Below are positions 4,499 to 60,858 of a stretch of 64,000 nucleotides of DNA, one piece after another. The translations under genes were made by a program, and so were the position numbers. Below the pieces are notes generated by a model that worked only from the letters and a program-made list of their open reading frames with translations, searched no databases and was not told the DNA's origin. How positions within the stretch are numbered: the stretch's first letter is position 1; each line of letters starts with the position of its first letter. Source of the stretch: Octopus vulgaris (Eukaryota); assembly GCA_951406725.2 (NCBI GenBank), contig OX597814.1:142538001-142602000 (forward strand), written 5' to 3'.

Positions 4499-4897
4499 TG
4501 CGCGGGAGTGGCTGTGTGGTAAGTAGCTTCCTTACCAACCATATGCTTCTGGGTTCAGTCCCACTGCGTGGCACCTTGGGCAAGTGTCTTCTACTATAGC
4601 CTCGGGTCGACTAAAGCCATGTGAGTGGATTTGGTAGACGGAAACTGAAAGAAGCCCGTCGTATGTATTTATGTGTGTGTATATAGTTAAGTGTCTGTGT
4701 TTGTTCCCCTACCATCGCTTGACAACCGATGCTGGTGTGTTTACGTCCTTGTAACTTAGCGGTTCGGCAAAAGAGCTTGAAAGAATAAATACTAGGCTGA
4801 CAAAAAATAAGTCCTGGGATCGATTTGCTCGACTAAAGGCGGTGCTCCAGCATGGCCGCAGTCAAATGACTGAATCAAATAAAAGAGTAAAAGAGTA
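4499..4897 (+). mobile_element. SINE S1, near full length; flanked by minus-strand S1 fragments (about 4275-4480 and 4900-5040)
   Basis: Head GGGAGTGGCTGTGTGGTAAG, GGTTCAGTCCC, CORE-like CCTTGGGCAAGTGTCTT, tail AAAAGAGTAAAAGAGTA. Confidence 0.85.
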
Positions 4898-5614
4898 AAT
4901 ATGTACGCACACATACACACGACGGGCTTCTGCACAGTTTCCGTCGACCAAATTCTTTCCCAAGGCATTGGTTGGCCAGGAGCTGTACTAGAAAACACTT
5001 GCCCAGGGTGCTTCCCAATGGGACTGAACCGGAAACTATGCCAGTACATCATTTTAACTTTCTTTCTTTCTGTCCAAGAAATTATTATTGAGGCTGTGGA
5101 GTGGCAAAACCGTTAGAGCGTTGAACCAAATATTTAACCGTATTTAGTTACAGCTCTTTACGCCCGTCATCTTTCCGGGGTCGATAAAATAAAACCAAGT
5201 ACTGACCGTGGATGTAATTAACTTGTCTGTTCCCACAAATTCGTGGCCTTGTGCCATTATTAGAAATTATCATTTGAATGACATAGTGGCAGAATTGGTA
5301 GAGTGCCGGACCAAATATGTGGCGCTTAGTTACATCCGTTAATATTTTGTGTTCAAATTCTGCTGAGATTGACTTCATAATAAGACGATATGACGATCTA
5401 ATGCTCTTAGCTTAGTTTTTTCCCTGGGACTGGCCAGATTGGAGCAATCTCAAGAATAATCAGCCGAAATTGAAAGGATAATCTGGTGCTTGATTGAAGA
5501 AAGAAAACTTCGAATGACCCATCTTTGTTTTCTTTGTATCGTCTATCTGGATGTTTTGTTGTCCCTTTTTTTTATCACCTAGCTGTCCGGATGTTTTGCG
5601 TTCTTGACCCATTT

Positions 5615-15039: not shown

Positions 15040-15040
<1 letters not shown>

Positions 15041-15268
15041 TTTATTTTAAGCAGCAGAAAATTCAACAAAATCTGTTACTCTGAGTTTCTCGTTGCCGTT
15101 CATCAGACAGTTTTTGCTAGAAAAAACTGTCTGATGAACGGCAACGAGAAACTCAGAGTAACAGATTTTGTTGAATTTTCTGCTGCTTAAAATAAAGCAT
15201 ATTACTCTACCACTGGTATTTCAGTACTCTTTTTTCCACCTTGTTTCACATTTATGTGTTTACTCCGG
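15040..15268 (+). mobile_element. (TA)n-embedded palindromic hammerhead element, family A (PLE-like derivative)
   Basis: 76-bp perfect inverted arms 15040-15115 and 15122-15197, 6-bp spacer, unique tail 15198-15268, (TA)n on both sides. Confidence 0.85.
15127..15164 (+). ncRNA. Type I hammerhead ribozyme motif (mirror copy on - strand at 15073-15110)
   Basis: CUGU-CUGAUGA-A-CG-GCAA-CG-A-GAA-ACUC-A-GAGU-A^ACAG: intact core, stem I CUGU/ACAG, short stem II with GNRA loop, self-complementary stem III, GUA triplet (cut after 15160). Confidence 0.75.
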
Positions 15269-20737: not shown

Positions 20738-20820
<83 letters not shown>

Positions 20821-21203
20821 CTCTTTTACTTGTTTCAGTCATTTGACTGCGGCCATGCTGGAGCACCGCCTTTAGTCGAGCAAATCGACACCAAGACTTA
20901 TTCCTTGTAAGCCTAGTACTTATTCTATCGGTCTCTTTTGCCGAACCGCTAAGTTACGGGGACGTAAACACACCAGCATCGGTTGTCAAGTGATGTTGGG
21001 GGGACAAACACAGGCACACAAACACACACGCATATATATATACATATACATATATACGACGGGCTTCTTTCAGTTTCCGTCTACCAAATCCACTCAGAAG
21101 GCTATAGTAGAAGACACTTGCCCATGGTGCCACGCAGTGGGACTGAATCCGGAACCATGTGGTTGATAAGTAAGCTAGTTACCACACAGCCACTCCTGCG
21201 CCT
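20821..21203 (-). mobile_element. SINE S1
   Basis: Reverse complement of the S1 consensus with an internal CA/TA tract and a small deletion. Confidence 0.88.
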
Positions 21204-22510: not shown

Positions 22511-22733
22511 ATTGACCGCTAGCTCCAAAAGATTTTTTATTCTTTCTCTGTTTATTTCCTCGTGTTCGTTTCTGTTGAAGAGTGTAGGCTCGAAACGTAA
22601 AAGATTTTCTCACCTTCCCAAGTGTTACACTAATACACCTGTTTGTTGTTTATACACCTGTTTGTTGTTTATACACCTGTTTGTTGTTTATACACCTGTC
22701 TTCGTCTTATGTTTTTTTCTGTAAATTTTAACT
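22510..22733 (+). mobile_element. PLE-like 3'-end element, family B variant, with variant hammerhead at 22569-22602
   Basis: UUU-CUGUUGA-A-GAGU-GUAG-GCUC-GAAACGUA^AAA (core A6 changed to U); 19-bp tandem ATACACCTGTTTGTTGTTT in the tail; (TA)n both sides; homolog at 50355-50545. Confidence 0.65.
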
Positions 22734-22753
22734 ATATATATATATATATATAT

Positions 22754-22943
22754 GTAGGTCCCGGGTTGATTCGGGGTTAACCACAGTAAATAAGGTACTC
22801 AATACATAGCAGAGTAAAATTAATTTATTATATAGAAGGAGTTCTACAGGACTAGAACTGTTTCATTCAAGAGAAATCTTCAGGAAGCCCTTCCTGAAGA
22901 TTTCTCTTGAATGAAACAGTTCTAGTCCTGTAGAAGCTCCTTC

Positions 22944-22952
<9 letters not shown>
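22754..22952 (-). mobile_element. (TA)n-embedded palindromic hammerhead element, family C copy 1
   Basis: Arms 22826-22887 and 22890-22952 (one 1-nt indel, spacer CC), unique tail 22754-22825; homolog of 52519-52710. Confidence 0.88.
22890..22936 (+). ncRNA. Type I hammerhead ribozyme motif (mirror copy on - strand at 22842-22887)
   Basis: CUUC-CUGAAGA-U-UUC-UCUU-GAA-U-GAA-ACAG-UUCUAGUC-CUGU-A^GAAG: stems I, II and III all present, GUA triplet (cut after 22932). Confidence 0.85.
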
Positions 22953-22981
<29 letters not shown>

Positions 22982-22986
<5 letters not shown>

Positions 22987-23161
22987 ATCCAAACAAGAAA
23001 ACACAGAAAAAAAACAGAAAAAACACAGCAACGCGAGGACGTGGAACAATTAAAGTATTATTTGACGCTCAGGAAAGAAGGGAAGGGGGGTTTAACGTTT
23101 CGAGCGGAGCTCTTCGTCGGAAACAAGGAGAAGGAAAGATCCCAAGAAGGGAAGACAGAGG

Positions 23162-35932: not shown

Positions 35933-36400
<468 letters not shown>

Positions 36401-36626
36401 CAATCTTTCTCCCGGATGCTGGAGTTGGTTGCACATCAGTTGTCTTCGTACTGACTAGAGATTTTCATTTGTGGGAAAAAAAATTTGCGGCCGGGAAAAT
36501 GTATGTCTGCTCGCGGATACATAAGTGCCCAAAGCACTTAGCAAAAACAAAGTAGAAAACGCCGGGTAATCCTCGCTGACGAGTGACAGCTAAGCACATA
36601 CACACAACCACACTAACATAATATGC

Positions 36627-40140: not shown

Positions 40141-41342
40141 GTATAGATATTTATGATTTTTTTTTAGATTTTAATTATTTCTGTGGTAAAATAAGCATTT
40201 CTCGCCTAAAAATTAATGAATTAATAAATAAGAATAGACTACGGTAATGCATTGTATAACACATTAATAAAGTACATTAAAAGAAAATACGTCGTGTACC
40301 ATAAATAAGTAAACAAAGAATCGCACATACTGTATGGAAAGCGGAACTCGGGTGGCGAGTGTGTGGTATTGCTTTGCATTTATAATAAAATAAATGTATA
40401 CAAATTATAAATATAATTTTAGAATATGTGCGGCCATGCTGGAGCACCTCCTTTAGACGAAGAAGTCGACCGCAAGACATTCTTTGTAAGCCTAGTACTT
40501 ATTCTATCGGTGTCTTTGTCTTTGTTCCCCCAACATCGCTTGACAACCGATGCTGGTGTGTTTACATCCCCGTAACTTAGTGGTTCGGTGAAAGAGACCG
40601 ATAGAATAAGTACTAGATTTACAAAGAATAAGTCCTGGGGTCGATTTGCTCGACTAAAGTTGGTGCTCCTGCATGACCACAATCAAATGCCTGAAACAAG
40701 TAAAAGAGTAAAGAGTATATATATATATAATATCAAAGGGAAATGGAATTTAATTAAAGTTAAAACATTCAATCAAAAATTACATTTCCAGATGTCCAAC
40801 CCCTTAAAAAAATTTTAGTCAAAAAGACTATATATTAGTCATACAAAATAGTGTATATTAAAATACATAGAGAATCCACTTATAGGGATTCTACGCGCTA
40901 GAAAGAACAGCTAAGTTCTATAACCAGCAAAAATTGGGGATAAAATTCGACAGGAATAGATTTGGAAACTAAAAACATTTACCGTCTAGATTCCTGGACC
41001 AATTGGTTTCTAATCTTCTTTTAGTGAGTCATAGAGATCTTACAAGGTCTGATTTTCGTCAACTGTTGACGGTGTATTGTAGTCAACGAATGGTCTGCAC
41101 CTGCTCAGAATAAATTTGAAAAGTTAGGTCGTATGTACACTGGGCAGATAACCTATTTTGTCTCGTGTAGATAGGTTGGTTCTTTAAGATATCGTACCCA
41201 ACGTTATTTTCATATTTCATGTTGTTTACTTTTTGTGACGTCCTGTACCCATACATGCATACCTATATTCATACATATGTATGTACATATATGTGTGTAT
41301 ATATGCATATATATATATACATTATTTATATTATAGAACGCC

Positions 41343-60445: not shown

Positions 60446-60858
60446 GGCGCAGGAGTGGCTGTGTGGTAAGTAGCTTGCTAACCAACCACATGGCTCCGGG
60501 TTCAGTCCACTGCGTGGCATCTTGGGCAAGTGTCTTCTGCTATAGCCCCGGGCCGACCAATGCCTTGTGAGTGGATTTGGTAGACGGAAACTGAAAGAAG
60601 CCTGTCGTATATATGTATATATATATATATCTGTGTGTGTATGTGTGTGTGTGTTTGTGTGTTTGTCCCCCTAGCATTGCTTGACAACCGATGCTGGTGT
60701 GTTTACGTCCCCGTCACTTAGCGGTTCGACAAAAGAGACCGATAGAATAAGTACTGGGCTTACAAAGAATAAGTCCCAGGGTCGATTTGCTCGACTAAAG
60801 GCGGTGCTCCAGTATGGCCGTAGTCAAATGACTGAAACAAGTAAAAGATAAAAGAAAG
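60445..60858 (+). mobile_element. SINE S1, full length
   Basis: Complete head, CORE-like segment, internal TA/TG tract and tail. Confidence 0.9.

Follow-up and report, generated by a model that had tools for sequence, protein, structure and literature searches.

The layout of inverted pLTRs plus a tail is already published for Penelope-like elements (PLEs): inverted pLTRs with junction palindromes and a tail have been described, and self-priming on an antisense template has been proposed for them, with the choice between sense and antisense templates left open in the passages cited (PMC3846280). The formation of inverted and tandem PLE ends is also named as an open question (PMC8557442), and min-HHR (hammerhead ribozyme) pairs on opposite strands have been noted (PMC4209133). 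Within PLEs, the Hydra clade is marked by RWK, a change of DKG to DKT, the motifs CxCx5C and CxxC/CxH, the lack of CCHH and the use of (TA)n targets, and its members are generally shorter than 3 kb, which is a tendency and not a strict criterion (PMC8557442). For PAc (Poseidon, Anolis), work in vitro found that the protein cuts and extends both strands and that mainly uncleaved RNA is used (Frangieh et al. 2024, PMC11167929).

The window, i.e. the whole stretch of 64,000 nucleotides analysed here, contains two HHR-bearing palindromes, copy 1 (22754-22952) and copy 2 (52519-52715), which we compared by end-to-end alignment, numbering positions relative to the predicted cleavage site with 0 as the first base after GUA (Table 1). 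The alignment bore out the preliminary description in that the copies share their architecture and that their HHRs differ solely at N7 (A/U) and at two loop-2 bases (UCUU/AUUU), each variant being present in both arms of its own palindrome. Outside the HHR, the tail region accounts for three differences (at 22770/52535 and 22830/52594 and, as an indel, at 22816), copy 2 has one unmirrored substitution (52594 versus 52711), and in the assembly sequence the tail-bearing arm of copy 1 is one base short. The axes do differ (GGAAG-CC-CTTCC in copy 1, GGAAGCTTCC in copy 2), but the 'CC spacer' that had been read into copy 1 dissolves into one templated base, G(-44), and one untemplated base, likely contributed by the cap or added by reverse transcriptase. 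For these two copies alone, the chance that three changes all fall in 13 of 51 positions is 0.014, a value in which two of the changes are adjacent and so not independent. The copies cannot serve as the two independent tests for which they had been taken: the variants at N7 and in loop 2 are source-element haplotypes, that is, ordinary subfamily variation. The flanks are (TA)n, in which no target-site duplication could be read.

Table 1. Features of the two palindromes and their flanks, in window coordinates.
Feature	Position	Strand	Basis or remark
(TA)n target, left flank of copy 1	22733..22753	.	sequence
One-sided tail of copy 1, +20 to +91 from cleavage site	22754..22825	-	sequence comparison
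Mirrored part of tail-bearing arm, copy 1, from G(-44)	22826..22888	-	type I HHR with its C3 at 22883; cleavage predicted after 22845
1-nt deletion (+3) in this arm only, found repeatedly in tight palindromes	22841..22842	-	probably assembly error
Single untemplated G at copy 1 axis (template A)	22889..22889	-	versus ORF-linked copies and family pattern
Inverted arm, copy 1, -43 to +19, ending at AT-rich second priming site	22890..22952	+	
HHR of inverted arm, copy 1			core intact, with C3 at 22894; 4-bp stem I; cleavage predicted after 22932
(TA)n target, right flank of copy 1	22953..22982	.	sequence
Tail-bearing arm, copy 2, reaching A(-45)	52519..52654	-	U7/AUUU haplotype
Axis of copy 2, self-complementary AGCT common to both arms	52651..52654	.	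zero spacer
Inverted arm, copy 2, -45 to about +19	52651..52715	+	HHR intact

Searches of the 2.8-Gb genome with a 31-nt tail pattern gave 4,354 exact matches (reversed control, 0), and an HHR descriptor gave 7,637 (control, 11). The first 90 tail-pattern loci on contig C1, carrying 92 tails, and 29 further loci spread over the genome made up a sample of 121 tails, with 30 query-biased loci excluded from all counts and L267 dropped as a duplicate of L087. Tight palindromes accounted for 67 of these tails, while 40 run upstream into a microsatellite-rich body; genome-wide, both N7 sites could be read in about 1,762 tight palindromes. Short-read contigs of two runs reach the mirrored arm, at 22873 or 22878, and since they enter it, palindromes of this Penelope-type family exist outside the GCA_951406725.2 assembly. 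Raw reads of two runs under the same species label (X23 and X24, 1.9 Gb each) included just 8 and 16 from this abundant repeat, too few for use; the label, a filter or a species difference may be the reason. The window also harbours a different HHR family, at 23120 (-) and 43215 (+), with a C[C/U]GACGA core, a 12-nt stem II region and a 2-nt insert in stem III; one of its copies lies about 170 nt from copy 1, and about a dozen more occur in the loci retrieved. A further palindrome (15040-15197, 64-bp arms, 30-nt spacer) gave no HHR in the scan and sub-threshold Rfam microRNA matches, and a dispersed 239-nt repeat recurs at 1244-1482, 4648-4886, 36169-36407, 40469-40707 and 60610-60848 and, inverted, at 20818-21056.

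ORF matches adjoin matches to the long body at no fewer than nine loci, at least, and two loci (L237, L239) display the complete layout of a pLTR with HHR and tail, followed by ATATCC and an RT plus GIY-YIG-type ORF. In ORF-linked copies the tail continues as ATAT into the ORF, the first ATG lies at +138, placing the HHR in the 5' leader, and each pLTR of the source element carries a single HHR. Tail ends followed by A and two non-A bases number only 26 genome-wide, a pattern for read-through that misses the ORF-linked copies since these continue as ATAT. Continuous frames from RT (YRDD) through a linker to LVY..YIG are found in L235, L243, L247 (where it is YIR) and L256, and BLASTP of the family ORF against a Pfam-confirmed PLE protein gave E=6e-5; a Pfam search with the family protein returned no RT or endonuclease match. 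Both L328 and L329 contain RWR, a conservative variant of RWK, together with DKT, and the family protein has a CNCPDKTTC linker (CxCx5C), and CDLC (CxxC) and CMH (CxH) around the conserved E and N; as read by eye, one Cys stands alone between LVY and YIG, so there is no CCHH. The family inserts in (TA)n, has a canonical HHR in its pLTR and shows the insertion-unit layout of EN+ PLEs, with an inverted 5'-truncated copy and a tail on one side only. Its unit, at least 5.2 kb with a microsatellite-rich 3' region, is longer than the less than 3 kb typical of the Hydra clade; successive pLTRs lie 5.2 kb apart in L328 and 7.2 kb apart in L329, and these distances may include nested insertions. Judged by these sequence marks, the palindromes are short insertions of a Hydra-clade-like PLE in (TA)n, and the palindrome family is a new family of an already known kind.

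Other PLE-type sequences are intermingled with the family. We rejected the RT plus GIY-YIG ORF of L157 as a partner of the palindromes, as it belongs to another PLE nested in (TA)n of the family body. This second PLE (L157:967-7430), with Pfam RT plus GIY-YIG, a 557-aa upstream frame that has no Pfam match and an inverted end, sits in (TA)n of the palindrome family's own 3' region, and a related ORF occurs in L150. More YRDD-type RT frames, probably of other Hydra-like families, lie on the opposite strand of L154 and L165.

The family HHR is of type I, with the core CUGANGA, GAAA and UH, three helices, and U10.1/U11.1 in place of the usual G-C; Rfam gave no HHR among the best 150 matches, with only sub-threshold microRNA matches. 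We asked where alleles common to at least two loci fall among 38 long copies and found them at 5 of 13 N7/loop positions versus 0 of 38 core/stem positions (p=5.5e-4, with about five independent events behind the test), which agrees with the earlier view of N7 and loop 2 as tolerant positions. Private changes in these copies did not spare the core (8 in 1,444 core/stem bases versus 1 in 493). As shared alleles spare core and stems while private changes do not, the source elements likely kept the fold under purifying selection, with dead copies decaying neutrally. The claim that the ribozyme was selected in its sources thus holds against N7 and the loops but not against the neighbouring sequence: the core was no more conserved than the 86 nt downstream (5 variable positions; 0/38 versus 5/86, p=0.32), with 16 variable positions in the 35 nt upstream, and no stem allele was shared among the long copies, giving covariation no power. 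A first selection test on all arms (5/13 versus 3/38, p=0.019) was discarded, since misaligned axes at -39 and -38 and the +3 indels had distorted it.

Folding predictions gave stem I a probability of 0.99-1.00 in a 51-nt RNA and of 0.09-0.34 at 70 nt. An invariant hairpin from -2 to +14 covers the cleavage site (window 22831-22846 and 22931-22947) and is a predicted rival of stem I; this downstream hairpin may be why the RNA stays uncut. HHR cleavage itself is predicted, and we infer from the sequences that integrated copies derive from uncleaved RNA.

Do both arms of a palindrome come from one template? Only 10 of about 1,762 tight palindromes are discordant between their arms at N7, where random pairing would give about half, and therefore the two arms come from a single template. 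When the window copies were added to the sample, the arms agreed at N7 in 47/47 cases, at loop 2 in 55/55, 53/53 and 55/55, and at loop 3 in 60/61. The check proposed earlier, of arm identity within against between copies, came out as anticipated, with a mean mismatch of 0.66 within and 2.52 between copies (50 palindromes). Mirrored private changes occur, some of them in stems (L097, L109, L288). Among the 10 discordant palindromes, seven differ at N7 without linked sites and three (L260, L263, L266) at two to three linked sites. As the 39 sampled palindromes that have both cores fall into 19 axis types, and the source has a single HHR per pLTR, the palindromes must have been made anew, so that the proposal of their creation from a single-HHR template stands.

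The one-base deletion of copy 1 fared differently: present in the assembly, it is probably absent from the DNA. The identical deletion at +3 occurs in 185 arms versus 7,643 intact ones, in 20/124 arms of tight palindromes versus 0/38 long copies; all 30 sampled deletions lie in tight palindromes, and the deletion is mirrored at 1/29 loci. Among the 32 contig pieces listed from four runs at 100% likeness, no contig bridges 22841/22842; they stop at 22841 or begin at 22842, and the flat round depths of run X6 leave no room for a bridging contig. The deletion is probably an assembly error, although it may instead be a hairpin-induced mutation in vivo. Being confined to tight palindromes, nearly always unmirrored and, among the listed pieces, unbridged, indels beside the cleavage site were rejected as a signature of template jumping, and in this assembly an indel in just one arm of a tight palindrome should not be taken for a biological feature.

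On the 5' side the units end sharply, at A(-45)/G(-44), and they have two fixed 3' ends, at +91 and about +23. Tail-bearing arms stop at -46 to -40 in 51/121 cases, and only 3/121 end at the cleavage site (-2 to +2), despite a second AGCT at +2 to +5. In 34/38 long copies, A(-45) has a TATAAA 29 nt upstream; one further copy has this box shifted by 1 nt, and three others have CATAA at that spacing. Where a solo copy directly adjoins (TA)n, an untemplated G precedes A(-45) in 35/48 cases (template T or C) and other bases do so in 13, of which eight would be tiny inverted arms; the patterns used for these junctions miss cases with a flanking T right before A(-45), which made up 8/56 in a hand count. 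That hand count covered 89 loci, from 100 of 152 rows taken in order from the top, and found G at 32 of the 56 loci reaching A(-45), and an internal break gave G at 0/13, a weak control since template and flank both give A there. Untemplated 5' G's in L1 and SVA have been attributed to the cap (PMC3287187). From the TATA spacing, the 5' stop and the untemplated G, we infer that A(-45)/G(-44) is a capped transcription start and that the templates were uncleaved; RNA-labelled contigs cannot reveal transcript starts. At one locus (L327), a copy starts with GG at -44 and extends into the ORF for about 70 nt; next comes a second unit that spans -44 to +23, and this direct tandem (L327:8680-8996, -) resembles a run-off, a jump and a second run-off.

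At the other ends, the inverted arms of the 67 sampled tight palindromes terminate in a TA-like tract, between +21 and +27, and the tail ends at +91, the putative main priming site, after which the source continues as ATAT; both ends thus match the (TA)n target. Half of the solo loci (11/22) extend from -45/-44 to about +18..+27 with neither a tail nor a partner arm within 1.5 kb. Zero-spacer axes are the commonest genome-wide (599). Among one-base-short axes, the inverted arm is complete in 139 and the tail arm in 152 (p=0.48); the 67 sampled palindromes split 21 versus 18 by which arm is complete, with 28 ties, and the arms of L032, L052 and L277 do not overlap. In L147 (oriented 5180-5560), the inverted arm begins at an internal (AT)n of the long body and not at +23, the 3' region of this element being full of its own target repeat. 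What is new in this family is the axis 29 nt below a TATA box, the untemplated G in solo copies, the scarcity of cleavage-site ends, the predominance of zero-spacer axes and the symmetry of the axis.

We consider it probable that a palindrome consists of two run-off cDNAs, primed from both nicked target strands on a sense RNA that was likely capped and uncleaved, and joined head to head. RNA polymerase II would start at A(-45), 29 nt below TATAAA, giving a transcript that opens with HHR stem I. The GIY-YIG endonuclease would then cut both (TA)n strands, one target end priming at CUAC^AUAU through a 4-nt target match and the other at the UAUAUA tract, which would leave the roughly 70-nt one-sided tail. 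Both cDNAs would halt at the cap, often with an added C, and their 3' ends could pair through AGCT or shorter matches before fill-in. Two cDNAs ending in AGCT would make the zero-spacer axis the commonest and leave symmetry otherwise, as opposed to fold-back of the tail cDNA, which would need a loop and in which the tail arm would never be the shorter one. On the other side, an arm concordance of 99.4% requires that both cDNAs were copied from the same RNA or from transcripts of the same locus, and mirrored private changes fit fold-back or arm homogenisation equally well. PAc primes without target homology, as opposed to the 4-6 nt matches seen here, and this counts against priming at two such sites (PMC11167929).

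The main competitor, which we hold to be unlikely, is that a tail-primed cDNA, once past the 5' end of the RNA, folds back, is extended along its own sequence as far as the AT-rich tract and is then joined to the second target end, with later deletions at the centre varying the axes. Central deletions arise later in palindromes. Such a fold-back would provide the 99.4% concordance for free, together with the mirrored private changes and the L036 axis with its 4-bp stem and 3-nt loop, and junction palindromes of PLEs have been ascribed to self-priming before, in that case with an antisense template, as a proposal (PMC3846280). A cap-derived C could also allow fold-back of a single cDNA, giving the GGAAGCTCC axis. 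The commonest axis, however, is loopless, and the upstream template cannot supply its pairing bases; the inverted arm is complete as often as the tail arm, half of the solo units lack a tail, three palindromes have non-overlapping arms, and three others are multi-site chimeras. Later centre deletions might symmetrise fold-back products and remove one arm, and the chimeras could stem from gene conversion or mis-assembly instead. The G on the sense 5' end speaks against an antisense template.

Very improbable, too, is a palindrome that is copied as a unit, being a self-contained element or a retrozyme, or one whose arms were homogenised after insertion. Arms do match within copies, and retrozymes are reported to derive from PLE pLTRs (bioRxiv 10.64898/2026.07.22.740005), but the variety of axes and the linkage to the ORF refute unit copying as the main route: the axes are of many types, a third of the sampled copies (40/121) run into the long body, and ends do not pile up at the cleavage site. 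The retrozyme layout of non-coding, head-to-tail HHR monomers with cleavage-site junctions was not the form seen in the sampled loci, where units are head-to-head or solo and linked to an autonomous-type ORF. Equally hard to credit is a -45 stop that reflects 3' splicing or a stall on the structure of HHR stem I instead of a transcription start, for although YAG precedes stem I in 37/38 long copies and the intron of D. virilis Penelope ends at the 5' end of helix I (PMC4209133), AAG stands there in one long copy, copies retain AG or G plus an extra G without a recurring upstream exon, the TATA spacing is maintained across subfamilies, and a stall would presumably halt the enzyme at the 3' strand of the stem and not past its 5' strand.

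A wider reading, for which we see about as much reason to accept as to doubt it, is that these stumps record PLE insertion as such: a capped mRNA whose first nucleotides are HHR stem I, kept uncut by a downstream hairpin that captures the cleavage site, is copied from both nicks at two TA-matching sites, with strong-stop cDNAs meeting at the cap end, and run-off plus jump building pLTR tandems. On this wider reading, the inverted pLTRs, the tail and the partial tandems would be explained by one mechanism on the sense strand and not by antisense self-priming. The family makes the question of how inverted and tandem PLE ends form testable, since it supplies nearly identical products of 200 bp by the thousand, predicts the start nucleotide, bears a cap signature, has two priming sites and shows axis types that can be counted.

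For L1, Ostertag and Kazazian reportedly described in 2001 a twin priming in which the second target strand primes internally on the same RNA; L1 twin-priming arms are not known to overlap. The family would resemble L1 in internal second-strand priming on the same RNA and in the untemplated 5' G on complete cDNAs (PMC3287187 for the G), and would differ in that both cDNAs copy the same 5' segment, hence the palindrome. Our literature searches, which covered few subscription papers, found none linking PLEs with twin priming or microhomology priming and none on this octopus family. In the passages cited, the Hydra clade, including Hydra-1_Obim, has a single ORF of RT plus C-terminal GIY-YIG and (TA)n targets as here (Craig et al. 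2021, PMC8557442), and several Hydra-clade rows of File S2 share the type I HHR with U/U flanking stem II; the HHR sequence differs from that in the Hydra-1_Obim row, and the unit of at least 5.2 kb departs from the clade's typical length of less than 3 kb, the likeness being one read from motifs (PMC8557442). With PAc, the family would have in common two internal start sites that bound the tail, cutting and extension of both strands, an AT-rich target and an uncleaved RNA substrate, but its HHR lies in the 5' leader, whereas that of PAc overlaps the ORF (PMC11167929). With EN+ PLE insertions such as Pen2a_Av (Arkhipova et al. 2013, PMC3846280; PMC8557442 fig. 2; PMC4209133), the family shares the head-to-head inverted copy, the one-sided tail and an HHR in each arm. 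Compared with the published insertions, the tail here is longer (about 70 nt versus 30-40; PMC3846280; PMC8557442), the axis is fixed at the putative transcription start, and where self-priming or endonuclease resolution has been proposed (PMC3846280; PMC8557442; PMC4209133), two run-off cDNAs are proposed here.
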